Source: Hydrurus foetidus (taxonomy: Eukaryota). From it: DNA of 39,164 bases. The notes under the pieces were generated by a model. It was not told the DNA's origin. It worked only from the letters and a program-made list of their open reading frames with translations, and made no database searches. Position numbers and translations under genes: made by a program. The DNA lies in contig UYFQ01000703.1 of assembly GCA_900617105.1 (NCBI GenBank), positions 1-39,164 on the forward strand, read 5' to 3'. How positions within the stretch are numbered: position 1 is the stretch's first letter; each line of letters begins with the position of its first letter. Shown here piece after piece: positions 2,949 to 39,164 of this stretch.

Positions 2949-2990
2949 TTAATGCGTGAATAGTAATGATTGTGATGTGGCATAGGGGTG

Positions 2991-3329
2991 TGTTGGAGAT
3001 ATCGAAGTTTATGACACGGACACAATCTGTGTACTTATTACTTATGCATTCGTACGGACGTACGGATTAATGTGTGTGTGTGTGTGTGCGTACATGCGTG
3101 TCGACGATGAATGGACCCGTGCATCGTCTCTGTACTTCAAGCGTAGAGTAGGAATGACTTTTGTTGTTGCGTTGAAAGGGACTCAGGGACTTCAGCAGGG
3201 ATGAAGCACAGTCAATTAACAAGTGTTTACTGCTTATACACAGCTTATTCCACGAGTCTTGACCGAGCGATCTTCAACCACTGTACAACGAGAGACATAC
3301 ATGTGACCCAAACCAAAGATCCGTCAACA
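2991..3329 (+). repeat. 3' LTR of family D element
   Basis: Begins TGTTGG directly after the PPT-position sequence and ends TCAACA (inverted termini). There is no partner LTR in the window, so the right end is inferred. Confidence 0.65.
3071..3088. repeat. (TG)9 microsatellite inside the LTR
   Basis: Direct reading. Confidence 0.9.
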
Positions 3330-3387
3330 ATAGGCAGTGTTCGCGTATTCGCCACAGGGTACATACGGTATTATACATACTTCATAG

Positions 3388-3705
3388 TGTTGGAGTATCC
3401 GGAGAAAAGACACTGCTGTAGTTGTATAGTATATGTGTGGATCCTGACGGTCAGCGGTGTGCATCCTGGGGATGTGGACTCTGGACCGTTGGTTGTATGG
3501 GCTCATGGAGCCATCCATTCATCTATCTTCAACATGGATAGAACATGTGCAATTGCCTTGATATGTAAAGCTTCGTTGCCGTCTTGATTGATGCCGGTGC
3601 ACAAGTTTAATTATCAAGTAATTACACAGTACAAGTCTATTTTACGAGCCTTGGGTCACCGGCAGCAAGTTTCACTAAGCATCCGGACTTTGAGAAAGCC
3701 CAACA
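3388..3705 (+). repeat. 5' LTR of A1 (318 bp)
   Basis: TGTTGGAG...CCCAACA; near-identical to 8661-8936/16799-16840 and to the A2 LTRs in reverse orientation. Confidence 0.95.
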
Positions 3706-3715
3706 TAATTAAACT
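3706..3715 (+). promoter_or_regulatory. PBS-position sequence TAATTAAACT, complementary to the element's own LTR (3604-3613)
   Basis: Abuts the LTR-terminal CA, lacks TGG, and is the reverse complement of AGTTTAATTA in the LTR. Confidence 0.75.
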
Positions 3716-8660: not shown

Positions 8661-8936
8661 TGTTGGAGTATCCGGAGAAAAGACACTGCTGTAGTTGTAT
8701 AGTATATGTGTGGATCCTGACGGTCAGCGGTGTGCATCCTGGGGATGTGGACTGTGGACCGTTGGTTGTATGGGCTCGTGGAGCCATCCATTCATCTATC
8801 TTCAACATGGATAGAACATGTGCAATTGCCTTGATATGTAAAGCTTCGTTGCCGTCTTGATTGATGCCGGTGCACAAGTTTAATTATCAAGTAATTACAC
8901 AGTACAAGTCTATTTTTCGAGCCTTGGGTCACCGGT
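8661..8936 (+). repeat. 3' LTR of A1, left part
   Basis: Matches 3388-3663 and breaks at CCGGT, the TSD of element B. Confidence 0.95.
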
Positions 8937-9227
8937 TGTCATTGCATTGTCATTTCAAACACAAACACACAACACAATGCTCACCGAACGACCGAGCGGT
9001 CCCAACGGCACGATGACGATCCGATCTTTCCACGTTGAAGCAGTTCAGAAGAGAACTGGTCGCGACCAGTTCTCCAACAGCTACACATTGTCCATTTCAA
9101 TTGCATTCATTCCACTCAATTCACCTCATCGTTTCCATTCCACAATCACAATCTTTCACTCGGTAAACTTAAAAACCAATTCTGTTTCTACCGTTTTCCG
9201 TTTCTGGATTACCGCCGAATCCCGACA
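8937..9227 (+). repeat. 5' LTR of B (291 bp)
   Basis: Direct repeat of the split 3' LTR; about 2 substitutions seen. Confidence 0.95.
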
Positions 9228-9240
9228 ATTGGTTTTTAAG
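9228..9240 (+). promoter_or_regulatory. PBS-position sequence ATTGGTTTTTAAG, complementary to the element's own LTR (9168-9180)
   Basis: Abuts the LTR end and is the exact reverse complement of CTTAAAAACCAAT. Confidence 0.75.
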
Positions 9241-9242
9241 CA

Positions 9243-12200
9243 ATGCTCTCCACATCCACAGCCGCTGCCACTTCCACTGCTCAACATCCAATGCTGGACC
9301 TCCACTCAGACAACTGGTCGCAGTGGCATCAAGCCTTGAAGCTCCTCTGCTTCACCAAATTTGGTGTCGCTGGGCAGCAAATCCTCTCCGACACCACCAT
9401 CCCGCTCCAACCATTTCCGATCGAGCCAACAAAGGCCGACCTCGAGGCCGACCTCACAGGAGCTCCCACTCCAGGTCTCTTCACTTATCAGCGCCGACAA
9501 GCCACCGACGCCGAAGCCGCTCAACCCAACTTCGATCCCGCCACTCTTCCCCTCAGCACCCTCGGCAATACCAACTTTAGAGATGACAAAAAGATCTTCT
9601 CGGCAGCACAGCGTCGGTTCTCCGACGAGGACACAGACTGCCTCGACCATCTCTACCGACATATTTCCTTGGCCTCCCATACCGCAGTCAAAACCCACCC
9701 CAACTACCCTACCTACCAACTTCAACCCATCGGCTCTCGGAGCTATCCCTTCTATGTCATGGTCCGCGACATTCACTCCATCGGGAATGCCGCCACCAAA
9801 CTCCATCGCACCCGCCTTTATGTCAATGTCTCACAATCCGACTTGCCACATGAATCCTACATTGAACTAATAACCACTATGACTGAAACATTCAAGCTCG
9901 ACTTCGAGTCCGCGGTTCACCCGGCCTTTGTATCTATACCTGAATTAACTAGCTTCCTTTACCTCGCAGGACTCAACCGCAACGAGTTCCGCCGCGCCCT
10001 TGATGAGCTCCTCCACAACCATCCAACTGGACGGTTCCCAGATCCCACAGCTCTTATGTCCCAACTCGCATTTCTTCGCATTTCCACCTCCTTCGACTTC
10101 CATCTTTTCCTTCATTCCTCGGCTCGTCCATCCTTCCTGTCCACTATTCCATTTCCTTCCACCACTCCACCCCTCCCTGCCTCCACCATTTCCAGAACAC
10201 CTCCACTGCCACCTCATCAGAGCCACCATCGAGTCTCCACTCCTCGGACTCCGCCTGACTACCAGCCACCATCGCCCCCCTTGCACTTTTCTCCCGTCCA
10301 CTCGCCCTCGCTTCCTCCAGTACACCAACCTCCTCCACCCACCATCCAGTCTCCACCCATGATCCCCTCCCTCCTTCCTCCATCCATCCAGTCACCCTCC
10401 ACCCGGCCGCCCTCCCCCCACCACCACTATGAACTCTGCCTACTTTTCTCCACACTACCCGTTAACCTCTTCAGCCTGGGCCAAACAACGCTTTCATATG
10501 GACCTGACCCCCTTCGCCCCCTTAGTCACGTCACTATCCGCTCCTCCCCCTCAGGACCCCTCTTAGCCCACGCCGCCCTATCCACCCACAACCTCCTGCC
10601 TGTAGACTTCGCCGCCCTCCTCCACGCTTCGTCAATCAACCCTCTCTCATACTATCACCCCGTTGCAATGGCCGCGCATTCCCTCGTACCCCACACTACC
10701 GCAGAGCAGCCTACCCCCTACCCCTCATGCATGCTGTACCCCATATCAACTCTGAGCAGCGCTCTCGCGCTGATGCTGCTGAAGACCTCCACATTGAACT
10801 TTGCCACCCCTCCGATCGCAGCCTCTGTGTCAACCTCTCCACCGGCAAGCTCCCTTTCAGCACCTTAACCTGCTCCGATGTCACCCTTAACCGCCAACTC
10901 CGCGGCCCTTGCCCCCACTGCACCGCTGGTAAACACCGCAGTCCCTCCCATCCCCCCTCCACTAGCGCCCCCGCCACCTCACTTGGAGCCGTCCTCAGCT
11001 TCGACCCCAGCTCCTCCCAGAGCCCTCCCCAGGCCTACACACCCATGAAATCATCATAGTCGACGAGTTCACTGGCCACCTCTCCATCGTTGGTGCCTCA
11101 TCCAAATCCACTCCGGCTGTCTTCAAAGCCCTACACCACATTATCGCCACCACGTACAATGCACATCACCATCGCGTTCACACCCTTCACGGCGACTGTG
11201 AGAAGATCAACACTTCCCTCGCTGCACCACTTGGATCCCTCGGAATCTCCCTTCAGCTTTCCCCCTGAGAACACGCCGCACGCGTCTTCCACCACCTTCC
11301 CTACAACTACATTCCTCTCCATTCCTCCATCCTTCATTCCCCTCCCTTCACCACTATTTTCCACCACACCCTTCATTCTTTCCACCAAACTTGATCCACG
11401 ACCATCCATTTCCACAAAATTCCTGATCTTCCTTCATCCACTCTTCCTTCTTGCAAACGGTGCAATCGTGCCCCCCCGTCCAACCGCCCCCTTCCCCCAT
11501 CACTTCGTTCCCTTCAACTGGAGTCCAAAACCATTCGTTCCCAACGTTCCCTTCCCCCCTCAACCCATTCCCCCATCCATGGCCATCCTGTTTGTTGTGT
11601 CCCATCCTTCATCCGCCCCTCCGTCCGACCTCCTCCTTCCCTGGTCCACCATTCCACCGTCCACCCCCCCGTTCCTCCGGGCCACCCTCCCCCCCTTCCC
11701 ATCCCCTCCTTCCTCTGTCCATTCCCAACCCTTCCGACCCCCAGCCCTCGTCCCCGTCCCCGTCCCCGCAGCCCCCATCCCAGCCCCCTCGCCGAACCAC
11801 AACTCCGCTTCAACCAACTACAATCCCATCCCCACTCCCTCCGCACCCACGTCACCCCCCTGACACCACTGCGTCGCTCATCCCGTGCCACACATCCCAC
11901 CAACTTCTGGCGAGGCTGTTATTCTCTACCCTCGACACCGGTCCCACCTCCTTTACTCCCTCCCTCCGCGTACATCAACGCTGCCCAACGTAAACTCGAC
12001 AACGCTAAACTCGCCGCAGCCCGCAATCGCCAGCACCGTATAGACAATCCTCCAACAATTCCCCTCAACAATCGACACACGCTCCTTGAACCCCAACCGC
12101 TTACCCCCCAACGTGCTGAAATGTCCATTCGTAAAGCCTCGCAGCCCCTACCTGCCTCCGACATTGCTGCAGGAATAGCAAAAAAACTGGGAAAACATTT

Positions 12201-13741
12201 TGACACCTACCAGTCCCTCCAACTCATCCCTCGTTCCAGTGTCGAATCCAAAGCCATCTTCCTACGTAGTCAAATGCTGATCAAGAAGAAATCCAACGGC
12301 ATTGTCACTGCCCGCCTCGCCATCGACGGTAGCCGCCAACCACGTGAATCCTACAACGATACATACGCAGGAACCTCCGACACAACCAATCGTGCCTTCA
12401 TCCTCAGCTCCTACCTCGCCGATGCTGCACACCGTAACTGCCTCGACCAGCTCCTCCTTGGAGACTTCGATTTTCCAGGCGCCTTCCTCCACAACAAGCT
12501 CACACGCGAGATGACCAACGGCCACCAGCTAATCGCGATCCTCCCGGCCGACCTCCCTAGTCCCCTCGCCAACAAGCTCGCAGAAATCACTGGCTGTTGC
12601 TATGGTATAAAGCAAGCCAACCACGAATACGACAAAGACCTCATCAACCTCCTAACATCTGCTGGCTTTCACCCAACACTCTCTGACCACCACAGCTTTT
12701 ATAAGCAATGTCCCGACAACCCCGCCGACTCACTGACCCTCAACATGCATGTCGACGATGGATGGTACGTCACTTGCTCCCGTACACTACGCGATGAACT
12801 CAAAACCATCCTTACAGGACGCTACGGACCCATAGCCTTCAATGATGCCTCGACAGGTGTCTGCGGAGTCCGTCTAACACGTAACGCTGACCACTCATGT
12901 ACTCTCGACCAAGGCGCCCACATCTGAAGTTCTTACATCAATCTGGCATGGACCTCGTCCCCCCCGCACTTACACCATCCACCGCAAACTTCTTCGACCC
13001 CCCATCCGACCTTACCCCAGTAGACCGCACCCGCTTCTTACGCATCAACGGCACTCTCATATTCCTACTTTCAATTCGACACGATATCAGGAAAGAAGTT
13101 GTCCACCTATGCACTCGAAACATTTCCCCAACCCAATCCGACCTCTCAAAACAAATCCACCTCCTCCGATATCTCAAAGGCTGCCCCCACATCGGCCCTA
13201 CTTTCTCCGCCAACCCATCCTCATTTCCATCCGGAGTCACTATCCTCGCTGCCGCTGACTCATCCCACGCATGCCATCCGGATGGACACTCTCACTCTGC
13301 GTACACTATCCAGATCGGCACGACCAACGCTTCATTCGCCGTCCACTCTTCCGCTGAAATTTCCGGCGTCGCCCTCAGCCCCTGCGAAGCTGAGTATCTC
13401 GCCCTCGGAAGATGCGCGAAAGATGTCAAACTCTTCCGACAGTTTGCAGCAGATCTAGGCTTCCCCCAAACATCTCCAACAGTTATCCTCGAAGATAACC
13501 AACCAGCTATCAATCTGACCACCGCACACCAGATCACCCGCAAGTCCCGCCACATCGCCCTCAAATCACACTACATACGCTGGCTTTACAAAACCAAAGA
13601 GATTGTCCCCAACACATAGGTACTCATGACATGATTGCCGATGGTCTCATCAAAAGCCTCACCCCCTCCAAATTCTTATGGTTCCGCAGCAAACTACTCA
13701 ACACTCCAACTACTTCACACAACCCTCACTCATCATTGTAA
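9243..13741 (+). pseudogene. copia gag-pol of B (heavily deleted and frameshifted)
   Basis: Gag-like N-terminus (NWSQW); IN zinc finger LHIELCH...CPHC (about 10790-10925) with a truncated core; RT TARLAIDG, DFPGAFLH, CYGIKQA, MHVDD (12121-12927); RNase H ADSSH, SPCEAEY, EDNQPA, MIADGLIK. Confidence 0.88.
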
Positions 13742-13829
13742 TTTCTCACCCCCCCTACATATAGTACTCCACATTTCTCAATATAACATAAGCCACATAT
13801 CGATTCATCATATATCACTTACCGGCGCA

Positions 13830-14004
13830 TGTCATTGCATTGTCATTTCAAACACAAACACACAACACAATGCTCACCGAACGACCGAGCGGTCCCAACG
13901 GCACGATGACGATCCGATCTTTCCACGTTGAAGCAGTTCAGAAGAGAACTGGTCGCGACCAGTTCTCCAACAGCTACACATTGTCCATTTCAATTGCATT
14001 CATT
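13830..14004 (+). repeat. 3' LTR of B, left part
   Basis: Matches 8937-9111. Confidence 0.95.
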
Positions 14005-14437
14005 AGAGTGTTCCTGATTCGTCCAAAAACGGGTAAAAGACAAATAAAAAAGACAAATCTGTCTCGAAACCATCGAAACCTCGTGCCCCTCGGACGAATT
14101 TTCGCAGAATCTGTCCTGCCTCGAGACAACATATCATCATTCAGAAACCCACTGTAAGAAAACTTCACTGGCAGCCGATCATGAGATTCTATCGCAGACC
14201 AGCGATTAAAAAGTTGTCACTTCGTCGGAGATGGTTAGGACTGACATCCTTGATGCGAATCTCGTGCAGAAAACTTGAGAAGGTGGACTTTGAGACTTTA
14301 TCTTTCGAACGTCAACGTCTCTAACAGCGTCGCAATCCATTACCTAGATTATCATCAAGCTCGTCAGAATCTTCCGCCGGATCAGATATGTTGAAAGTAG
14401 GAGGAAAGTAACGAGACTGAAGAGAGCAATTCTGAGA

Positions 14438-15559
14438 TTGTTGATTCGACGTCACAAGATAGTCAGTGTTCCCAAGGAATTAGAGGAGAAGCTGCCGAGA
14501 ATACGGAATCTTCGCAGAACAATTGATTCATTCTCCGACGAGGAAATTCCCGTCTACTTTCGATTCCGGAGTAAAGAGCAGCTTCATCGTCTGATGCGGG
14601 GTTTTCAAATTCCGATGCAAGTCAAATTACCTAAGACGGGCAATGTATTCGAAGGGGAAGAACTGCTTCTTATCGGACTGTATAGACTCCACCGACCAAC
14701 GACACTATCTGAAGGCGGTTTCAAGCTCATCTTTGGAATGGGACATACAGCAGTGTCAATGGCCTTCAATGCTTTCCTTGATTTCATAGTGGATAAATGG
14801 AGTTACATCATCACGGATAACATGGATTTTTGGCTACTGTATTTACCAGACTGTGCACAGGCCATCCGAGATAAATGTGTCGAAAAGGGTTGCTACTTTC
14901 CAGATGCGCGATCACCCGGAGGACTTAGAGTAGCAGCGTTTATAGACAACACTATGAACGCTACCTGCCGCCCTGGTGGAGGTCCTGCGCGAGATGGCCG
15001 AGATGCGCCGAGGAACGACCCTCTCATTCAGCGCGCCTGGTACAGCGGCTGGAAAAAGCTCCACGGAATGAAATATCAGACTATAGATATGCCGAATGGG
15101 ATGAACTTACATGTCTGGGGTCCCATCAGCGTGAGACACAACGATCTGACATCATTAAGAGATTCTGATGTCAATCAGAAAATAGTCGATATGCAAATCA
15201 ATGAACCGCTTCAGTGGGTATTCTACGGGGACTCTGCCTATGTTCATGTGCCAGATTCGCATATTCTAGCGAGGCACCATAACGAAGTCAACACTGAGCG
15301 TCAGAACCAAGAGAAAAGATGTCTCTCAGCTTGTCGTGAGTGCATCGAATGGGACTACGGCGACGTCGGAAAGATGTGGTCGATGGTGGATTACAAAAAG
15401 GTTTTAAAAATGCAATTAATGCCTGTTAAGGATATCTATTTGACTGCTCTAATACTAAGGAATGCTTACGTCACAATGAATGGTGGTACCGCTCCAGAAT
15501 ATTTTAATTTGACTCCACCAACTTTTGAAGTGTGGGTACAACAGGGTCCACGCTGTTAA
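14438..15559 (+). CDS. Harbinger/HARBI1-type DDE transposase (true start probably upstream and disrupted)
   Basis: FRFR..L HTH-like region, FIDNT, YSGWKKLHGMKYQ..PNG..GP..RHND, YGDSAY, RECIEW. The ORF track start is a TTG; the upstream ATG at 14231 is followed by stops. Confidence 0.88.
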   Translation: MLIRRHKIVSVPKELEEKLPRIRNLRRTIDSFSDEEIPVYFRFRSKEQLHRLMRGFQIPMQVKLPKTGNVFEGEELLLIGLYRLHRPTTLSEGGFKLIFGMGHTAVSMAFNAFLDFIVDKWSYIITDNMDFWLLYLPDCAQAIRDKCVEKGCYFPDARSPGGLRVAAFIDNTMNATCRPGGGPARDGRDAPRNDPLIQRAWYSGWKKLHGMKYQTIDMPNGMNLHVWGPISVRHNDLTSLRDSDVNQKIVDMQINEPLQWVFYGDSAYVHVPDSHILARHHNEVNTERQNQEKRCLSACRECIEWDYGDVGKMWSMVDYKKVLKMQLMPVKDIYLTALILRNAYVTMNGGTAPEYFNLTPPTFEVWVQQGPRC

Positions 15560-15610
15560 ACCTTATTGTTTAATAATATATTTCATTTTCGTTTTCATAA
15601 ACACTTCACT

Positions 15611-16474
15611 TTAAAACGTATCTTTCATGTTTCTCGCGAAGAACTCCATCATTTTCATTTGTAAGTTGGACGCGGCGAGGTCCGCTTTGGATCGTTCCAT
15701 TTCGGCTTTTGAACGCTCAAACGACATCTTCTCCTCTGAATCCATTCTTCTTTTCTCAATGTCTCGCGCGTGTGCTCTGTCGGCAATTGAGTCTTCCAGC
15801 CTTTGCTTTCTCTCAGCAATCTCCAATTCTAGGAGTCGTGGATCGTCTTTCATTGCCTTTAGAACCTCGACTTCAAAGTCTTCCCCTGCCTTGTCCTGCT
15901 GTTGAAATGATGGAGACCGTCTTCTTTTAATTGTTTTCGGGACGATGGTGCTTCCATCAGAGCAATCAGAAACAACATCCTCAGGAGAAGCTGCAGAGAA
16001 CTCCTCTTCCTCATGTCTGTCATGTCGCGCCAGCATTTTCTTCTCGTGCGTAATCATCTTATCGTTTCGCTCTTTGTCTTTCACTTTCTGATCCTCTTTT
16101 GCTTTTGCTGTTTCAAACCTCTCTTTCAGCATCGTCAGGACCAGCTTATCCAGCTCCGAGGGCTCCTCGTCTAGGCCAGACAGATTTGCCCCCTCGACAC
16201 TGATTGCGTACTTGGTGTCGACGTTAAAGGCGATACGGTCCCACTTCTTTTTTAAGGCAGCACCATCCAACATGGCTCCCGAAAATGCTTGATCAGAGCT
16301 GATTTTAATGCTCACTGCAGTAAACTTGTCAGTCAAATTGGTATCTCTCCGCATGTAACCTTTTTCCTTAAAGACATAGTTTGCTAGAGTGAGCTCCTTT
16401 TGCTCAGTCCAAGCAAAATTACGCTTCACAGGCTTCGCTGCCTTTTGAGTTGGGGGGTTTTCAATCTCTTGCAT
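15611..16474 (-). CDS. Harbinger accessory protein (Myb/SANT-like N-terminus, coiled-coil C-terminus)
   Basis: FAWTEQKELTL...LKKKW pattern and an E/K/R-rich tail; lies within the TIRs, convergent with the transposase; ATG at 16474. Confidence 0.75.
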   Translation of the reverse strand: MQEIENPPTQKAAKPVKRNFAWTEQKELTLANYVFKEKGYMRRDTNLTDKFTAVSIKISSDQAFSGAMLDGAALKKKWDRIAFNVDTKYAISVEGANLSGLDEEPSELDKLVLTMLKERFETAKAKEDQKVKDKERNDKMITHEKKMLARHDRHEEEEFSAASPEDVVSDCSDGSTIVPKTIKRRRSPSFQQQDKAGEDFEVEVLKAMKDDPRLLELEIAERKQRLEDSIADRAHARDIEKRRMDSEEKMSFERSKAEMERSKADLAASNLQMKMMEFFARNMKDTF

Positions 16475-16677
16475 TGTTAATTGATTGTGCCATTGTGCGC
16501 ATCGCAATGAAGCAAGTTTGTAAATCTTCAGAAAAAATTTCGAATTTATTTGAATCTTTTTGAAAATGTGTCCTATTTACTGACAGACAAATCAGAACCA
16601 CCTGCTTTTTGTCTTGCGTATGGGGACAGACTTGTCCACGGACAAATTTGTCCTGGACGGATCAGGAACACTCTATT

Positions 16678-16793
16678 CCACTCAATTCACCTCATCGTTT
16701 CCATTCCACAATCACAGTCTTTCACTCGGTAAACTTAAAAACCAATTCTGTTTCTACCGTTTTCCGTTTCTGGATTACCACCGAATCCCGACA
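16678..16793 (+). repeat. 3' LTR of B, right part
   Basis: Matches 9112-9227 and ends CCCGACA. Confidence 0.95.
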
Positions 16794-16798
16794 CCGGT

Positions 16799-16840
16799 AG
16801 CACGAGTCACTAAGCATCCGGACTTAGAGAAAGCCCAACA
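16799..16840 (+). repeat. 3' LTR of A1, right part
   Basis: Resembles 3664-3705 and ends GCCCAACA. Confidence 0.9.
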
Positions 16841-16849
16841 CATATAGTA

Positions 16850-17169
16850 TGTTGGGCTTTCTCTAAATCCGGATGCTTAGTGGCGCGTGCTTCCGGTGAC
16901 CCAAGGCTCGTAAAATAGACTTGTACTGTGTAATTACTTGATAATTAAACTTGTGCACCGGCATCAATCAAGACGGCAACGAAGCTTTACATATCAAGGC
17001 AATTGCACATGTTCTATCCATGTTGAAGATAGATGAATGGATGGCTCCATGAGCCCATACAACCAACGGTCCACAGTCCACATCCCCAGGATGCACACCG
17101 CTGACCGTCAGGATCCACACACATATACTATACAACTACAGCAGTGTCTTTTCTCCGGATACTCCAACA
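16850..17169 (-). repeat. 3' LTR of A2
   Basis: Reverse complement of the family A LTR. Confidence 0.95.
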
Positions 17170-21663: not shown

Positions 21664-22644
21664 TCAGTTGTTACTCTCCAATGGCGGAAATATGTAAGAT
21701 TTGAAGCGCTCCACTTCAGAAGCGGATCCATAGCAGACACCTACACGCCTATCGAGATCACCTACGATGACGTCCAGGAGTGATACTGGAGATACAGATT
21801 CAGCTGCCTCACTTGGGCAGACACACGTCGCGCCACCTGCAGCCTCGACAATAAGTGCTATAGGAGCAGCCTCAAAGAGTAGCCTGAGTTTGGCTTTCGC
21901 GGCAGGGGATGATGCATTTGCTAAGACTCCTTCTCCTTTGATCAGAATATGGTAAACATCTGGTACAAGGCCGCCACTGTAGCGCAAAGTATACTTGTTC
22001 TCAATCCAGTATGCAACCAGCCTCCTATAGCAATCATTGTCAACCGTCGCCCTCAGATTTCCTGGTGCGAAGGTTTTCCCCTTATGGGCGATGACAAGCT
22101 TATCTTTCGACACCATCCATCCTAAAGGAAGCATCGTCAGTTCCATGGCGATTGGTACGCCATCAACAGTGTTCATGCCATTTATAGCTATTGCTACAGT
22201 GACTTTCGGCCCATATTGCGCTATCATAGAGGCTGATTGTTCCCGACCACAACGATTTAGCAGCCCATTACCGGGCCATATTCCAACTATAGTGCCGACA
22301 GCAAAATTGCAGTCAACAATCGACGAGCCATCGAGGGGATCGAAGGCAACAGAAAATCCGACGCCGCCGCAGTCGATTTCAACTGGATTCTCCTCTGATG
22401 CGGCCACATGAACAAGAGAGCTCGATCGCAAACAGGCAAAAACCAGTTCATCAGTCTTCACATCGACGTCGAGCTGATGATCACCGAAAGCATTTTGAGT
22501 GCCAACCTCAGATGTTGAATAGCCGCAATCTCTAAGCGTGGTGCCAATCTCCCTTATACCTCCTAGTAATTTGGATATGAGATTGTGTAGGCCACTCTTC
22601 GTCGCTGTATTATTCAAAATTACGGTCAGTTCGGTGGGTAACAT
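21664..22644 (-). CDS. Sedoheptulose-1,7-bisphosphatase (FBPase class I family), 326 aa
   Basis: NAFGDHQLDVD, ASEE, FDPLDGSSIVDCNFAVGTI, FAPGNLRAT, YTLRYSGGLVPDV, KLRLLFEAAP; first ATG at 22644; intronless. Confidence 0.9.
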   Translation of the reverse strand: MLPTELTVILNNTATKSGLHNLISKLLGGIREIGTTLRDCGYSTSEVGTQNAFGDHQLDVDVKTDELVFACLRSSSLVHVAASEENPVEIDCGGVGFSVAFDPLDGSSIVDCNFAVGTIVGIWPGNGLLNRCGREQSASMIAQYGPKVTVAIAINGMNTVDGVPIAMELTMLPLGWMVSKDKLVIAHKGKTFAPGNLRATVDNDCYRRLVAYWIENKYTLRYSGGLVPDVYHILIKGEGVLANASSPAAKAKLRLLFEAAPIALIVEAAGGATCVCPSEAAESVSPVSLLDVIVGDLDRRVGVCYGSASEVERFKSYIFPPLESNN

Positions 22645-22799
22645 TATTCTCGACTTCCTCAAGTATGTCAGTTCTCGGAGCTGGTCCGCACGTTGAACTG
22701 CATGCAATTTATGCTGCCGTAGGGGTTGGAGACGCTCTCTACACCAGACGAGATGGATGGTAAAGATAGGCAAATGGGCAAAATACTGCACCGACTGGA

Positions 22800-22841
22800 T
22801 GTCGTAACTAAGGATCAGTTTCCACTGAATGGAAAACTATA
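22800..22841 (-). repeat. 3' LTR of C, distal fragment
   Basis: Identical to 33658-33699. Confidence 0.93.
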
Positions 22842-23083
22842 AGCCGCTCACACCGAAATTCTTTGTACTGGGTACCAGTTTTTCACCGCCGACAACAATC
22901 TGCACACTCGATCAGTCACATCACCTTCACTCCATAACCTCATAAATTTACAACTCGCAACCATCTGCTAAGTTACTGAGTGATTCTTGCAGAGTGGATC
23001 GCAGAGCTTCAGCCAAACGGCGAAAACGGGAAAGTTTTTTTTGCTCGGTAACTGCTTCCGCAAATATTTCGAATCGATTATTT
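22842..23083 (+). repeat. Left TIR (242 bp)
   Basis: Reverse complement of 27466-27711 apart from one ~4-nt indel. Confidence 0.95.
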
Positions 23084-23096
23084 TCTAGTCACGCTA

Positions 23097-25025
23097 ATGG
23101 GGATAAAAGACCTGATAAGCAAGATTTTTCCTGAGGAACTGAAGATAGAATCTAGCTCTGAGATCCTCAGAGACAAAACTATGGGCGTAGACGTATCAAA
23201 TTACATGTTTAAATTGATCACTACTCGTGATAATCTTGTCCGAGATTTTCACTGTGAACCGCGACTTGATACTTCTGCTCAAATTTTGAAATTCTGGGAC
23301 TCCTTCAAGAAACTTTGCGATAGATTTGATATCAAACTAGTGCTTGTATTAGATGGGAGAAGAAACACTGCAAAATTCGATACCAACCAGCTCCGAGATG
23401 CGAAGAGAGCAGCCATTATCGTAAAATTAAACGAACTTCTTCTAAATGCCAACAGTGACGATTCTGAAGAAATTTTGAAGCTACAGAAAAGTGCAATGTT
23501 CATATCAGAGGATATGCTATATGCTATTAAAACTTGGGCGGCTGAGAATGACGTTGTCTGTGTCCAATCACTCTATGAAGCGGATGCTGGTCTACAGCAC
23601 CTGGAAGATATGGGTATAACAGATGGAACTTTTTCTGAGGACGGAGATTTTTTTCCTCTCGACAGCAAATTGTGGGCTACAAAAGTGAGTCTTTCTAAAG
23701 GAATTTTAATCCTTTTCAACAGCGAGAATATCCGAACAGCCTTAACTGCACGGTTATCCCCCAGCAGTGAGGTTATCATGACAGCAGACCATGGACGGGT
23801 ACTGAGTGTGCTCCTGGGCAGCGATTTTTTGCCCCGACCAGCTGGTTTCGGACCAAAAACTGTTGAGAAGTTTATCGCAACTTGGATGATTTCATCTGAA
23901 GAGGAAAATAATAAAAGTTTAATGGAAATTGAAAAAGGTAAAAAAAAGAGGAAAAACGGTGATTCTGACGCACAAAATACCGATGCTTTTCCGAGTTACT
24001 CCTCCCGGTTTTGGCTCGCATTCAATATGTTAAAACATCCTCCTGTGTTCAAATTCACATCGTTGGAAGAAGGTGCATCTGTTAATATCGGGTTACTTGG
24101 TATTGACGACCTGAATCTAAGCAAGGAGCATGTCTTTCGCACACTAGGGTTCAATGCCTTACTAGACGTTGAGAATATAGGAGACTACAGAAAGCTTCTC
24201 TTCCTTGCGGATGACATATTCGTTAGGACTATGATGCCTCTACTACCAATTATTCAGCCAAAGAATTCTGAAGGATTGCTTCTTCCTTGGGGTTCTCAAC
24301 TAAACTTTGACAAGTGGCCTCCTAACATGTGCACATCTGACATGTTAAATAAGTGGTAACGAGCAAGAGGCGTACGTTATTCTCCAACTGTTGCTCACGA
24401 TGAATTAGTGAGATCGGTAATGACCCTTATGAATGAAGTGCCCCAGAGGGACATCATACCTGTCGACGATATACCTGAGGAGGCAGATTTTGGTGTGGGG
24501 CCTGGGGGTATACAGTGGAATTTGGACGGTGATTACAATTTTGCTCAGATAAGAGACAGCGAAGTTACTCCACCTATTAACGAAGAATTTATTGATGCAA
24601 TATTTGGTCATCGCGGTGGAGTGGAAAATCGGGCGATGCGACTCATACCTGGTGGCCACTTCAGTATGTCTACACTCAAGATATGTCGCATCATGTGCAA
24701 GCGTTCAGGCGTAAACGAAGAATGCGTTATGTATCAAATAAAGAGCACACCTTCAATGAAAGCCAACGAGTATGCAGTGAATTTAGTATTTAGAAAAGGT
24801 GTTTTAGATAATGATGAAGTTGGAGTCAGGTTTGTTAGAAGCCCTTACTCTCACTGTGATTGCCCAGCAGGCCAAATGTTCTGTTCTCACATGTTAGGTT
24901 TCTTAGGTATACTAAGAGTAATTCAAGAACATCTTCTGCTTCCATACAGCAAAATAAGTGCTTTACTTCCTCCGTCTGTTAAGGCTTTATCAAGTACAGG
25001 CATCTTACTTGAATATGTATTCTGA
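23097..25025 (+). pseudogene. XPG/FEN1/EXO1-family 5' nuclease + SAP + SWIM protein (~642 codons, one in-frame TAA at 24357-24359)
   Basis: MGIKDL, GVDVSNY, LVLDG, YEADA, SEDGDF, LLGSDF..GFGPKT (H3TH); SAP-like TSDMLNKW*RARG...DELVRSV; SWIM CDCPAGQMFCSH. The two ORFs are in the same frame. Confidence 0.88.
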
Positions 25026-25043
25026 ATTGTATTACTATTCAAT

Positions 25044-27459
25044 TTACACATACTCTCTATCTTTGTATTTCTTACAGAGATTAGCATTTGCATGACCCCA
25101 TGATATGCAATCTTTGATATAAGGTAAACAACTAGCAGGTATCACATCAGTCAGTAAATTTTCATCAGTAACTCTTGCAAAGTTAGTTTCTGAAATGTAT
25201 CTCAACTTGCATTTTACCATATCAGATGAAAGTTCAGATGTAGTAAACTGGTCTCTCCCTGATAGGAATGATGGAGTCATCTGGACATTCATGTTTGGAT
25301 ACCGTGTGGCATCATTAGCGAATCCACGATCTGCAAGTATAGCCCACCCCCGAGGGAATTTTCCTAACCGTAACGGTAACCTCAACTCTGCTAATCTCAG
25401 ATTGCGTACGACGGGGCTTAGATCGATGCCATTGACTTTCAAGGTTTGACCTTTCAGCACTCTTATCATATCGCTTCTTAACTTTGTAGTCACCTCTAAA
25501 TACTCGGATAGGAGACAGGATTCTAAATTACCACATGCGTACTGTGTGTGCAATCTCTTCAAACATTTCAATTGAATCAATTTAGACTCTGGCGATTTGT
25601 TTGGTCCTGATCTTAATACAGCTTGCTCTACTACATCGTGATCCTCTGTTGAATATATTCTTGCCTTCTTCCTACTATTTGCAGTGTTTTCTTTGTCAGC
25701 TGAGATCATACTCTGAAACCACTTATCTATTCGACTACAAAAATGTTCGCTGTCTGCTTCTCCTGGTGCTATATCTTCGTCCCCTTCCATGACTTCTCCC
25801 TGTACCTTAGTAACACCAGCAACCATTTTTCCTACATTTCTCGTACTAACACGCGATTGTATTGGACGTTTTATTTTCTTTAAATCCTTGTAGAGCTGTT
25901 TATCAATTAAACGCAAGGGTACTTCTCCAATATGAGACCCCAGTACCTGCACTATGTGAGTTTCAGACGCTCTTCCAAGATAAGGCTCAGATCTCTCACC
26001 GTTCAAGCCATTATTAAGCACCCAAGATAATACCCTCAGAGCTGAACAGTTAACTTTGTTGGAGTGTCCTGCTCTAGTAATTCCACTGTGAGTACGTATC
26101 GTTTCTGTTTTAAAATCCTCGCCATCAACTAGGCCACACACTTTGTCAGTAGAGCCGTTGACAAAATCTTCAGGAGTGAGAGATATAAGAATGGATTCGT
26201 TGATATCTAGTATAGACAGATTTGCACCCGCTTCTCCCCAAAGGGGGGCCCATATTTTGACATACCGGCCTATATTACTTCGCCCCCATATGTTACCAAT
26301 TAACTCAAACTCCAAACCTTTTCTGAAATACATTTTTGTTATCATACTTTTTTCAAAGTCACATATTTGCCCGTCTTTGATTTCTACCGTTGTATTCACA
26401 TAGGGCCAAAGACACTTGTGGTAAATGACGAACTCTGCAAAACTAATGAATCCGAGCCAGTAGTGACAGAACTTAGGGTGACTCTCGTGCCAGATAGGGC
26501 AAACGATGTTAGACCGAGTAATACCTTTAGATAAAGTCACTTTCATTTTCCCCAATTCGTCTGCAACTTCACGATTTTTTATCTTGCAACAACCGGTTAC
26601 TTTCAGCTGACACCTCGAGCTGCCTTTTCAATACCTTGACTTCACTTTCAATTTTTCTTAGCACTTTCTTCCCTTCATCGGTCATATTATTAATTATCGT
26701 TACTTTCTTTTCTTCGTCAGCAACTATTTTATTTTTACTCTTCTGCTCCAGCATTTTTCTCTCCTCAATCAGAATCTCAGCAGCCATAAATGCGGACTTC
26801 TGTCGGACCGTTGCTAGTCGGGCAAGATCTTCTCCAGGGAACTTATTTTCACTGCTGTTGGAAGACAATGCTTTTCTTATCGCTGCAGGTACAGAGTGGT
26901 CGCCAGAAGCCAGATTGTTAATCTGCTGATCCAAGAATACAGTATTTAGATAATTTCGGTAAAATCCAACAGTAGCCGAGGGAACATTAAAATAGTAGCA
27001 AGATGAGGACGAGATAGCTGCTGGTACTCGATCAGGGGTTGTCAATCCTATCTCTCTGCCTAGTTCGAGGCTCAGAATCTTTGGAAAGATCTTTTTCGAT
27101 GATCCTTCATTGGAATTACGGTGTTCCTCGAGAACCCTCGGATGCCAGTGACTGAAGGCCAAAAAATTTGGTGATTTGTCTTTCAAATCTGTCAAGCGAA
27201 GATGATTAATCACTAATGACCTATACTTGTCAGATATGATAGCTTTAGGAGTCGAACTCGTCTTCGATTTGGTCGGAATATAGCACAAGCCCACCCTGTG
27301 AAAATGAGACAGTAATTATACAGTAGAGGCGTCGCAGTTGAAAGCTCCTGAAATTCCTGAAAAGATAGGATCTTACATATCATGCTGTTCGAGAGCAATT
27401 AGACGCTCCTGCAGTTGACTGCACTCATCAGAATCAGTGCAACAGCACTTTCTACCCAT
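25044..27459 (-). pseudogene. ISL2EU-type DDE transposase; exon 1 27459-27377, intron 27376-27296, one frameshift at 26575-26580
   Basis: Cys-rich THAP-like start MGRKCCC..C, coiled coil, HTH (FEK..ITKMYFRKG..FELIG.IWG), LVDG, YLGRASE, ILADRGF, TPSFLSGRDQF, LRYISE. Confidence 0.85.
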
Positions 27460-27465
27460 ATCCTC

Positions 27466-27711
27466 AAATAATCGATTCGAAATATTTGCGGAAGCAGTTA
27501 CCGAGCAAAAAAAACTTTCCCGTTTTCGCCGTAACTGTGGCTGAAGCTCTGCGATCCACTCTGCAAGAATCACTCAGTAACTTAGCAGATGGTTGCGAGT
27601 TGTAAATTTATGAGGTTATGGAGTGAAGGTGATGTGACTGATCGAGTGTGCAGATTGTTGTCGGCGGTGAAAAACTGGTACCCAGTACAAAGAATTTCGG
27701 TGTGAGCGGCT
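27466..27711 (-). repeat. Right TIR (246 bp)
   Basis: Inverted copy of 22842-23083. Confidence 0.95.
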
Positions 27712-27714
27712 ATA

Positions 27715-28036
27715 TCCTTCCTGGGTACGCGCTCCTTCTGCAGGTTCAACACGTGCGCTAGCAACTTTCCCGGGCTCAAGGCGAAAGCTCTGCTGGTGTG
27801 AGTATTAAGGTAATTAACGATGCAACATCGCTTACATCGTTCATGGAGACAGGCGAAAAGATCGCGCTGTCCCGCACAGTCAAACATGGTGCACTTTCAT
27901 CTTTTGATGTTCCTGGGTTAAAGGAACCTGGACCGGTGGAGTAGCGACCACCACACGGCACACGACGTACGAAACGTCATCAAATGTACATACGTAATAA
28001 CTTATACGGTTACTTAGCTCATTAGTTATTCCGACA
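27715..28036 (-). repeat. 3' LTR of C, main part
   Basis: Matches 33700-34022 with about 3 differences; preceded on the minus strand by CATAGGGGTG (28046-28037). Confidence 0.95.
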
Positions 28037-33647: not shown

Positions 33648-33657
33648 TCGTTAATTA
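33648..33657 (-). promoter_or_regulatory. PBS-position sequence TAATTAACGA, complementary to the element's own LTR (33796-33805)
   Basis: Abuts the LTR end; forms a perfect 10-nt inverted repeat with the LTR-internal site. Confidence 0.75.
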
Positions 33658-34022
33658 TGTCGTAACTAAGGATCAGTTTCCACTGAATGGAAAACTATAT
33701 CCTTCCTGGGTACGCGCTCCTTCTGCAGGTTCAACACGTGCGCTAGCAACTTTCCCGGGCTCAAGGCGAAAGCTCTGCTGGTGTGAGTATTAAGGTAATT
33801 AACGATGCAACATCGCTTACATCGTTCATGGAGACAGGCGAAAAGATCGCGCTGTCCCGCACAGTCAAACATGGTGCACTTTCATCTTTTTGATGTTCCT
33901 GGGTTAAAGGAACCTGGACCGGTGGAGTAGTGACCACCACACGGCACACGACGTACGGAACGTCATCAAATGTACATACGTAATAACTTATACGGTTACT
34001 TAGCTCATTAGTTATTCCGACA
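33658..34022 (-). repeat. 5' LTR of C (365 bp)
   Basis: Uninterrupted copy of the split 3' LTR. Confidence 0.95.
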
Positions 34023-35506: not shown

Positions 35507-38500
35507 TTAGGCTGATGTCTCAATGTTTTTGGGAATGAAATGTTTCATTTTATTATCCCGTAAATAATCATGGAGTGCTTCACAGAGCCGTAGTGATTTC
35601 CACGGCTCCCATGTATTATGAGAATCATCGTAGTTGAGCCATTTAACATGGAACGACATTGTAGTCGGTTTCTTGGTGTCACCAGCGTGACCCAGAACTT
35701 TCTCAACCACGAACTCCATGTAATCGCGACGAGCAGTGTCAGCAGGTATATCTACCTCTGGGTCATAATTGAATATTTTCAAATTTTTGACATGAACACT
35801 TCGTTTCTTGTGATTTACAAGATTTGCGAGAACGTACTCGGACCCCTTAAAGGAGACAATACAGTAAGGGCCATGCCACTTAGTATGTAATCGAGTTGGA
35901 GGTCGATCAGTGTATCGGCATAAGACATATGACCCCACGGGGAACACAGTCGCTGATTCAGCTGACGCGGCGTTTTTAGCATCCGCTTTTAACAAAGTTT
36001 GAACCGCAGTTTCAAGTACTTTGTCTTGTACACTTATCAAATCTGATATGTACGTTGATCTTGAATGTGTTCCGACACTTAAGTGTGGAGTGAGAATACC
36101 ACGATTCAAATCAAGTTTGTTCCCAAACAATAAATGAGCGGGGCAAACACCTGTGCGTCTATTAACTGAACTGTTAATGATACGTTGCACGAATGGGATT
36201 GACTTAGCATATCCCTCAAGGGTTTGTTTATCAAAAACTAAACCTCTTAGGTGTCTATTCACCTCTTTGTTGACTCTTTTAACAATTGCATTCTCTTGTT
36301 TCGAGTAAGCAAGGGTGAGATTATGTGGTGTCCCACAAAGATCTAAGAATTCTTTGATCAATTCATTTGCGAAATGTGATCCTCGATCAGATCTAATCAT
36401 ATTTGGTGATCCAAATCGACCAAAATGCGCAAGCAAACAGTCAGCTGCTGATTTAGCATCTGCGTCTGCACACCAGAACAATTCTGTCCATCGTGTGAAT
36501 GTATCGATGATGACAAGGATATAACCTTTGTCAGGAAATGGACCAATATAGTCAACATTTAGCGTATCGAAGATAGCATAATTTGAAGTTGCAAAATGAG
36601 ACGCATTGATCTTAGGATCTTTTGCACTCAATTTTGACAACACGGACAGTTCTGTATGAACGTACGTACATGTTGTTTCATGTGTTTCCAAACTTGTTGT
36701 AAACTAAACAACCGAGTAAGGGTACGGTCTACGCCGTTGTGACCGACAATTGCATTGTGGCACATTTGAATGTATTCTAACTGATCGTCTGAAGCCGGTT
36801 CTATGACCGTCAGAGCTGATACAGTGAAAGAAGATGATGAAGTTGGAAGTAATTCCAATTCTTCTGTTCGTAATGGCAGAGCAATTTCTGTCAGATTAGG
36901 ACAAAGCCTTGACAGTGCGTCTGCCAAAACATTTGAAGTACCGGGTACGAATACCACGGTAAAATCTAGTTCTTGCATAGCAATGAACCATCTCGCCACC
37001 ATTGAGGTAGGATTTTGTTTCATATATGTTATGTTCAAATGATCCGTATGGATAGTGAACGTACGATCTCTAATTAGATAATCGAGTTGTGTACAACAAA
37101 AGAAGATGGCATAAGCCTCTTTTTGTATCGTAGACCACCTTATTTGTGTGGGTGTCAACGATTTGCTAATGAAAGCAATTGGTTGCCAAATGGCACCAAC
37201 AACTTGGAATAAGACACCACCGATACCAAAGTCGGACGCGTCTGTATACAAGCGGATGTCTAACTTATTGTCATCAATGAAGTACATTAATGGACAACGA
37301 GATATAGCAATCTTTGTGTCAACAAATGAGTTGGTGCTCTTTTGAGTCCAAACTACAGCAGAACGTCTCGGAGCAGAGTGATCAATCATATCCTGCATTG
37401 GCTTAACCAAAGTGGAATGCATTGGTACAAACTGTCGAAAATAGTTTGCTAAACCTAAAAATGACCTGAGTAAGGTTAAATTTTTAGGTATAGAAAAGTT
37501 TAAAACTGTTTCTATTTTTTCTTTTGACATGGATAAACCATCTTTGTCAACGACTCTGCCAACGTATTCAATACGTGGAAGGCCGAAACGGCACTTTTAG
37601 CTTTGAGTCTTAGACCCTTAAGTCTAAATCTTTCAAAACTTTTTCAAGTTAGTTAGAAACTCTGCTTCACCCTTGCCATATACTATACAATCGTCGAGAT
37701 ACATCTCAACAATGATAGATAAGGCCATAGAGGACCGCCGTTACCATCTGCTCTTGAAAGTAAGAGGGGGCTCGACACGGACCAAAGGGCAGTCTCGTAA
37801 ACTGAAATACCCCGCAAAGCATATGAATGCCGTAAAATGCGGTGTGCGGTGTAACGGTGCTTGATGGTAACCTGCGGTTAAATCCATCACACCAAAATAT
37901 CCGGTTTTTTATTACCGATCCTCTCAAAGAGGTGTTTGATATTTGGTAACGGGAATGAGGCCGGCTTAAGACACCTATTAAGTGGCCGGTAATCGATGCA
38001 GGTTCGAAATTTACCGGGTGACTTAGTTACTATTACAGGATGACTGTAATAAGCGGCATCTGATCGCTCTATAACCCCTGATGCAAGCATCTCGTCAAGG
38101 TTTTCTTTGAGAGCAACCTCTTTTGTTGATGACTGGGGACGTACCGGCGTACGGTTTTCGTCTTTTTCCCACAACTCAAGTGGGATGTTAATCTCAAAGG
38201 GTTTAAGTGACGCTGGTTTCTCAGCTAATTGATCACTGAAGATGTCTGAATATTCAGAACAGAGCTCTCGGAGCTTCCTTTGAAAGCTTTCATCTCCTTC
38301 AAAGGTAATCTCGTTGAGGAAATCCTCTGGCCCTTTGGGCAAGTCATCTTGACTAGGTTTCTCCGCCAAGAAGGGGGCAAACGTATCTATCTTGCCATCG
38401 TCAATCTCGTCAACTGAGAGTGCGACACCACTGGGCCATAAAGGCTCAGTGACATAGTCTAAGGTATCAGAGTCCTCAGAAGTGTTTGTAGGGGTGGGAA

Positions 38501-38573
38501 TCTGGTCGCCACCTAGGTGCGGTGTATCACCCGTACGTTTTGCGAGAATAGTAGTGACACTATTGGCAGACAC
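35507..38573 (-). pseudogene. gypsy pol (RT, RNase H, integrase, chromodomain), several frameshifts
   Basis: RTCIDYRPLN, TRLPFG, YLDD (near 37700), LRSFLGLANYFR, TDASDFGIG, EKEAYA-like QKEAYA, TDHLN, ADALSR, H..GH..CPCC, VDYIGP, SDRGSHF, WHGPY, chromodomain VEKVL..VKWLNY...TWEP. Confidence 0.92.
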
Positions 38574-39164
38574 ATACTGCAGAATAATGATTTTTACTCC
38601 GACTGATCATATCTTCATTGTGATGAATCAGTCGACGATGATCGATGCGTCTCTACCTCGAATTTGCCTGAGGCCTGGAAGCATTTTTTTCCACACGCTT
38701 TCTGGCCTGTGCAACTTAGGGATACAAATTTCGGTATAACCACGTCTAGTACTCTATAAGCACACTGTCAAACTTTGCCTCCCTAAGTTTAAAAATTGAT
38801 TTTTTTGTGGCTGTGTTTCCACTCTGCGACATGCTGACCTATCTCTACTACGAGCTTGAACACCGATTCAACATCTTTCATGTGCCATTGTGATGGTACA
38901 GGATTTAGTACCACATTCCTACCCTCCATAGTACCGTATAGCCGTCCGTACATGTGGCTGAGAGTCCTTCTGACCTCTCGCAGCTTGTAGTTACCTTGCA
39001 ACGCTTTGCATGCAGAGTTTTACACCTCTGCAAGCTCACCCACCACTCTTTCCGTTGTAAGCCTAACTACCTTTCTGCCTCTCCTAGCTTCATTTGGACT
39101 ACAGTGGATCTACTCGTTCCGCTTTCCTTCTAAATTCTACTACTTTGCCCCCTACTACCCATCC

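Follow-up and report, generated by a model that had tools for sequence, protein, structure and literature searches.

A Ty1/copia retrotransposon with a primer-binding site complementary to its own LTR: a candidate for Tf1-like self-priming

Family B, a Ty1/copia element found in the 39,164-nt stretch of DNA analysed here (the window), carries a primer-binding site that is the exact complement of a segment of its own 5′ LTR. Judged from the sequence and by analogy, it probably primes reverse transcription from its own RNA in the manner of Tf1, a reading to which we give a probability of about 0.75. The 13 nt at 9228–9240, which lie directly 3′ of the LTR end (offset 0) and are the sole copy of the site in the window, are complementary to 9168–9180. 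When the terminal A of the LTR is included, the arms become 9168–9181 and 9227–9240, 14 nt with 100% complementarity, and a loop of 47 nt is left between 9180 and 9228. An earlier note on this DNA had described this arrangement, and its coordinates and sequences are confirmed. The LTR arm is the predicted self-primer. What is observed directly is the duplex in B, its start at the first base past the LTR and, in the relatives of B, pairing of the same kind with their own LTRs in different letters. What appears to be new is that self-complementarity of the primer site occurs in a distinct, deep-branching lineage of copia, and that in part of this lineage a non-purine motif replaces the polypurine tract. 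Self-priming as such is not new for copia, as it has been predicted for the plant TAR elements.

All features of B are on the forward strand. The element is inserted within the 3′ LTR of a family A copia element and is flanked by a 5-bp target-site duplication, CCGGT, at 8932–8936 and 16794–16798. The 5′ LTR (8937–9227; 291 bp, TGTC...GACA) is followed by the primer-binding site and, 2 nt past it, by the start codon of gag (9243–10100), in which the frame changes after about residue 286; in relatives it is about 410 aa long. The pol region (10452–13720) was matched in seven pieces in three frames and has the copia order of integrase region, RT and RNase H, with YGIKQAN and HVDDG in the RT and the acidic motifs DSSH, CEAEY, EDNQ and ADG in the RNase H. 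The frame breaks, one in gag and those that divide pol into seven pieces, may be assembly errors or decay. A non-purine tract ending in GCGCA occupies the position of the polypurine tract (13816–13829). The 3′ LTR is split by a PIF/Harbinger-type DNA transposon (14005–16674; DDE_Tnp_4, terminal inverted repeats, ATT duplication) into a first part at 13830–14004, identical to the 5′ LTR at 175 of 175 positions, and a second part at 16675–16793, which is 98% identical and includes a second copy of the arm from 16734. About 2 of 291 positions differ between the two LTRs. Three independent features establish 9227 as the LTR end: the 3′ copy, which ends at 16793, the TGTC and GACA termini, and the CCGGT duplication.

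The two LTRs with TG...CA ends, a target-site duplication in the 4–6 bp range and the order gag, integrase, RT, RNase H (the integrase being recognised from motifs only) are those of Ty1/copia. Full-length relatives of B match RVT_2, which makes the RT copia-type; the broken ORFs of B in the window itself have no Pfam match. B falls outside the Tf1/sushi group, as its RT and domain order are those of copia and not of a Ty3/gypsy chromovirus, and no chromodomain is seen in it. A polypurine tract would be expected next to the 3′ LTR, but the tract ending in GCGCA adjoins it instead. The same ending is found in the relatives L102, L103 and L105, which represent two distinct families, and purine tracts are found in L101 and L104. 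The missing polypurine tract was treated as a variant trait and not as a ground to exclude B from Ty1/copia. In the B family, Gag and Pol are encoded by separate ORFs. The Gag ORF is about 410 aa long, its zinc knuckle (C-X2-C-X10-H-X4-C) is atypical, and it has no Pfam match. The family is large, with 85 gag relatives at 38–97% identity and, for the RT, 34 and 18 matches as well as 111 representatives at E up to 1e-30. These relatives were found in freshwater, sediment and air metagenomes, and among the gag matches and the 34 and 18 RT matches listed, the only name given is “hypothetical protein”.

The complementarity is rarely reached by chance. Matches of at least 13 nt to the first post-LTR bases arose in 1 of 20,000, 0 of 10,000 and 0 of 3,000 LTRs with shuffled dinucleotides, so that the match in B was equalled in 1 of 33,000 shuffles overall. 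The duplex has a folding z-score of −3.2, with none of 200 shuffles equally stable. From all six transcript start points considered, 13 of the 14 pairs have a predicted probability of 0.6–1.0 and the terminal A pair one of 0.4, and the duplex is thus predicted to dominate the ensemble whichever of the six is used. The whole hairpin is found, identical, on a single 833-nt contig from run X16, which excludes an error of assembly in its runs of five A and five T; the window itself may derive from X16. The earlier note had also seen a GGATT/AATCC stem in the loop. The stem is present as sequence (9206–9210 and 9218–9222, the inner U5 stem at 9206–9222), but its formation is not predicted in the window copy (P about 0). 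In L001, a close relative with 94% identity, the corresponding stem is 8 bp long and predicted to be stable (P about 0.97), and the weakened version in the window is the remnant of such a stem. No Rfam family or ribozyme reached the gathering score in the window and seven loci, and near the hairpin there was a chance match only.

When JGI metagenomes were scanned for the RT, 12 loci were obtained, eight of which have a readable LTR end and primer site. Left out were L105, which ends in its LTR and is a near-copy of L102, L106 and L112, which have no LTR, and L111, a duplicate of L110. Together with families A, B and C of the window, this makes 11 distinct junctions, and in ten of them (A, B, C and seven of the eight metagenome elements) a perfect complement of 8–16 nt to the element's own LTR starts at base +1. 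The LTR-terminal A also pairs in eight of these ten. What the earlier note suggested for this host's copia elements, a self-priming geometry that is widespread, is supported by these counts. The exception, L109, apparently a decayed relative of L108, has 6 nt only, and the LTR end that its terminal repeat picks out has no complement.

In family A, the arm is at 3604–3614 and the primer site at 3706–3715 on the forward strand (10 nt plus the terminal A), and in family C, which is on the reverse strand, the arm is at 33805–33796 and the primer site at 33657–33648 (10 nt). These lengths were reached in 1 and 5 of 3,000 shuffles, respectively. For A3, another window copy of family A that entered one shuffle test only, the figure was 9 of 10,000. 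L107, L108 and L110 have 14–16 nt of pairing, reached in 0 of 3,000 shuffles each. The B-lineage relatives L101, L102, L103 and L104, which share 35–48% RT identity with B, pair over 9, 8, 8 and 8 nt, with shuffles reaching the observed length in 11, 64, 104 and 84 of 3,000 cases. Taken one at a time, L102, L103 and L104 with their 8 nt give weak evidence (p 0.02–0.035); the Fisher combined p for the four relatives is about 7e-5, a value to be read with L102 and L103 being sisters.

Several controls bear on these numbers. Same-sense matches are 4–8 nt long and matches to the 3′-LTR flanks 4–6 nt, and primer sites tested against foreign LTRs match over at least 8 nt in 7 of 110 cells, so that little can be concluded from an 8-mer taken singly. 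For collapsed contigs, the first choice of the LTR end was made by eye. When the end was picked blindly from the terminal repeat, it coincided with the best-complement end in six elements (B, A, C, L101, L102 and L108), tied with it in L104 and disagreed in L109; the procedure is not applicable to L103, L107 and L110, the last two of which have no LTR start. Scans with the gag alignment found no match in JGI metagenomes or viral contigs, nor did RT scans of the viral contigs. A search of these contigs for the LTR-end pattern returned 91 stretches, which are chance matches, none of them resembling the B LTR by blastn; ARAGORN, run on 60 of the 91, found five tRNA genes.

The earlier note had proposed to look for conservation and covariation of the pairing in B-like elements. 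Pairing is kept in four of four B-lineage relatives, with changed letters, although at 8–9 nt it is shorter than the 10 nt asked for in the definition applied to the plant TAR elements. The MAFFT alignment of the leaders was uninformative, and pair changes were counted from the LTR end. Counted in this way, the five B-lineage elements have changes on both sides: position +5 is occupied by four Watson–Crick pair types and position +1 by three. The idea, also put forward in that note, that the TGG/CCA in B is a relic of a tRNA-type site finds no support here: TGG is found in only one of the ten positive junctions, that of B, and its second G is the variable +5 position, at which the five elements have four pair types. 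The TGG in B thus appears to be incidental.

Variation of the hairpin within the B family was read from contigs of eight runs. In four of them (X1, X3, X11 and X10), there is a loss of one base in both the A run (at 9171) and the T run (at 9233). The arm lacking one A has a depth of 4.6 in X1, 140 in X3 and 5087 in X11, and the primer site lacking one T has a depth of 3.75, 57.9 and 1896 in the same runs. The resulting ratio of arm to primer site is 2.4–2.7 in X3 and X11, which matches the ratio of LTR to internal sequence in the main form, and 1.2 in X1. The shorter primer site was also found in X9 and the shorter arm in L001, but among the contigs of the runs the two were never on one contig. 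X10 is discordant, with four A on the single contig that covers the LTR (depth 49.4) and either five T (26) or four T (21.2) in its primer sites; either mismatched elements exist or the assembler may have dropped a variant. A mismatched duplex is weaker, at −9.1 compared to −13.8 kcal/mol, with the primer end still paired. The one-base losses would fit a sister subfamily with a compensated deletion, but since the two changes never share a contig, this is suggestive only. A genome scan gave three loci: L001, which has the four-A arm and a primer site shortened by a deletion, and L002 and L003, which have no LTR. The contigs of all three lie in two bacterial MAGs (Polaromonas and Flavobacterium), most likely through binning contamination. 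A 79-nt contig from run X4 (depth 3), which aligns to window positions 9189–9233, passes from the LTR end through the primer site and continues as the reverse complement of LTR sequence that lies upstream of the arm. Fold-back during amplification may account for it, or it may have been copied from a 5′-extended self-primer.

B is distant from A and C, as the earlier note had held. In an unrooted RT tree of 54 rows, from which L105 was left out, B and L101–L104 lie on one side of a branch with 100/99 support (L104 is on a long branch and its placement is unsure), and a second clade (100/99) unites A and C with L107, L108 and L110. Two rows that carry canonical copia gag domains come off between this clade and the B lineage. 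Because the tree is unrooted and most of its rows have no known primer site, a single origin of the signature with later losses and two separate origins both fit. Self-priming might be ancestral and dominant in these two deep protist Ty1/copia branches, with tRNA priming acquired later, and part of the B lineage might also have swapped its polypurine tract for the GCGCA motif, leaving both strands primed without the usual signals; as a whole, this scenario is a tentative one and rather doubtful.

The proposed mechanism for B follows that of Tf1. Its transcript would begin within the 5′ LTR, either at 9168 or a short way upstream of it, possibly around 9158. A candidate start is the TCA at 9156–9158, 10 nt upstream of the arm, which, like the CTCA of relatives, we take to be an initiator-like motif. 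The sequence TC/GCA is kept at this position in variant loose contig ends. In the RNA run X20, contigs end at 9158 and start at 9151, although contig ends do not mark transcript starts. As the nearest initiator-like motif lies 10 nt upstream, a start at 9168 is not assured and the primer may have a short 5′ extension. In L107, L108, L109 and L110, CTCA immediately precedes the arm, as would suit a primer located at the RNA 5′ end. The arm of B would then fold onto 9228–9240 across the 47-nt loop, and a nuclease, by analogy the RNase H of B itself, would cut 3′ of the arm at 9180/9181 to produce a paired 3′-OH. From there, the RT would copy the remaining approximately 47 nt of the LTR into minus-strand strong-stop DNA, which would jump to the 3′ LTR. 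During plus-strand synthesis, the primer would be re-copied into the primer site, which would keep both arms changing together. The RNA start, the cut site and the cDNA end in this scheme are predictions made from contig sequences.

The duplex could instead be a conserved leader structure, comparable to a U5-leader stem, through which gag translation, dimerisation or packaging is controlled, while another RNA or a protein serves as the primer. The position of the gag start only 2 nt beyond the 3′ arm of B would suit such a role. Six elements (A, C, L103, L104, L108 and L110) also have further, imperfect predicted pairing that goes past the core and upstream of the arm, an extension that is unlike the Tf1 pretzel and would fit a general leader hairpin as well. 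Fungal GalEa copia elements are described as having a non-tRNA hairpin of unknown role at the same place (PMC5445492). However, the core starts from base +1 in all ten positive junctions, where DNA synthesis must begin, whereas the next ATG is anywhere from 15 to 84 nt away. Moreover, the cores are AU-rich (62–94%), which is poor for a purely structural stem, and no other primer site is evident. A purely structural role is thus considered unlikely.

It is very unlikely that B is primed by the 3′ end of a tRNA, or by a tRNA half, that matches by chance, with the LTR arm merely sequestering the site. The TGG does lie 2 nt past the LTR end, which is the classic spacing, and the arm presumably begins like the anticodon loop of tRNA-Leu(UAA). 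Half-tRNA priming is also described for the Osser, Bryco and Bianca copia elements (PMC6317226). A whole tRNA would, however, require an acceptor stem made almost entirely of A and U. The pattern for such a stem occurred in two stretches among 2.9 million viral contigs, a collection that is not the host's tRNA set, and neither is a tRNA by ARAGORN; the window has no tRNA genes. Furthermore, the relatives lack the TGG, the ten primer sites are all different and each fits its own LTR, and the variable T run is hard to square with a fixed tRNA. The inverted repeat might also be a by-product without function, formed through fold-back copying errors or by chance, and the X4 contig shows that fold-back copying does occur here. 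Against this stand the identical position of the complement in ten elements of two deep clades with different letters, the intact hairpin on the X16 contig (even if X16 may be the window's source) and the single shuffle in 33,000 that did as well, which together make a functionless origin hardly credible. Self-priming is thus preferred for B.

For Tf1, self-priming has been demonstrated, and for the Tf1/sushi group it has been proposed (bioRxiv 10.1101/2022.12.06.519325; PMC4600332, on Tj1). In Tf1, the RNA's first 11 bases pair with the primer site, and the cut made by RNase H lies between bases 11 and 12 (PMC7175516; bioRxiv 10.1101/2022.12.06.519325). B resembles Tf1 and Tf2 of Schizosaccharomyces pombe, Tj1 and the Tf1/sushi-Tcn1 chromoviruses, all Ty3/gypsy elements, in that the primer site directly follows the CA of the LTR and is complementary to a short LTR segment. 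It differs from them as a copia element, with the integrase region before the RT, relatives that match RVT_2 and no chromodomain seen. The duplex in B is 13–14 bp long with a loop of 47 nt, compared to 11 nt of duplex in Tf1. The three-duplex pretzel of Tf1 is not clearly present in B: the central duplex is firm, the inner U5 stem is predicted to form in L001 but not in the window copy, and the outer extension involves sequence upstream of the arm. The primer of B may also not be at the extremity of its RNA, and B, unlike Tf1, is known from sequence alone.

Among copia elements, the closest parallel is the plant TAR lineage (Houba, Osr-1), in which self-priming was predicted in 89% of 203 elements, defined by at least 10 bp of complementarity to the element's own 5′ LTR starting 0–5 nt past the LTR (PMC6317226). 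By this definition, self-priming is predicted for B as well, and like the TAR elements it is copia with a primer site complementary to its own 5′ LTR. It appears to differ from TAR in that its gag has no Pfam match and its RT clade is, in the 54-row tree, apart from the two rows with canonical copia gag. Its host is presumably a protist, whereas the hosts of TAR are plants. The fungal GalEa elements have a “conserved hairpin site” and no tRNA site, with the hairpin at the primer-site position (PMC5445492). However, both arms of the GalEa hairpin are downstream of the LTR, and its authors report having found no complement in the LTR, whereas the 5′ arm of B is inside it (PMC5445492). The diatom CoDi elements are, like B, deep non-plant copia groups, and in a nearest Atlas cluster to B-type Pol, Bacillariophyta is the commonest phylum among three recorded members. 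A word search of the main text of the CoDi paper found no mention of primer sites, tRNA or priming (PMC2806351). In the literature searched, which covered few subscription journals, no report of self-priming in protist copia was found.

Self-priming is usually regarded as a peculiarity of a single gypsy group and a single copia lineage of plants. According to one proposal, hairpin priming was the original mode of LTR elements and tRNA primers were taken up late (PMC3601003). With the signature of self-priming present in two copia clades that are far apart, both from aquatic microbial eukaryotes, this idea can be put to the test. There is also a practical side, as such elements will be overlooked or wrongly scored by tools that look for a polypurine tract or a tRNA site. 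B illustrates the danger, with a TGG that resembles a tRNA site. The weight of these points is tempered by the mechanism being already known from Tf1 and predicted in TAR copia, and by the present evidence being that of sequences.

The window as a whole is a nest of transposons from a eukaryote. The PIF/Harbinger-type transposon at 14005–16674 has a second ORF on the strand opposite to DDE_Tnp_4. A 4.9-kb insert at 22839–27715, within the 3′ LTR of family C, has terminal inverted repeats of about 250 bp and an ATA duplication; it includes a gene for an XPG/FEN1-type nuclease and one for a protein with faint DDE_Tnp_4 and HTH_Tnp_4 matches (E about 0.04), and on these features is likely a Harbinger-like transposon with nuclease cargo. 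At 16792–16898, two family A LTR ends face each other at a distance of 7–9 bp, forming a 49-bp inverted repeat. They are the end of copy A2 and that of an inverted, internally deleted A3 with a TAGTA duplication, an arrangement of clustered or targeted insertion. At the left end of the window, a fourth copia element (2990–3386) is about 71–78% similar to family A, with its 3′ LTR from about 2990 and its primer site beyond the window. A gypsy element bearing a chromodomain (rve, Chromo, RT_RNaseH) is at 35507–38606 on the reverse strand; its LTR pair was not found in the window. The only clear host-type gene in the window, which points to a photosynthetic eukaryote as the probable host, is a sedoheptulose-1,7-bisphosphatase-like (SBPase-like) gene at 21664–22836 on the reverse strand, with a family C LTR end at its 5′ edge.
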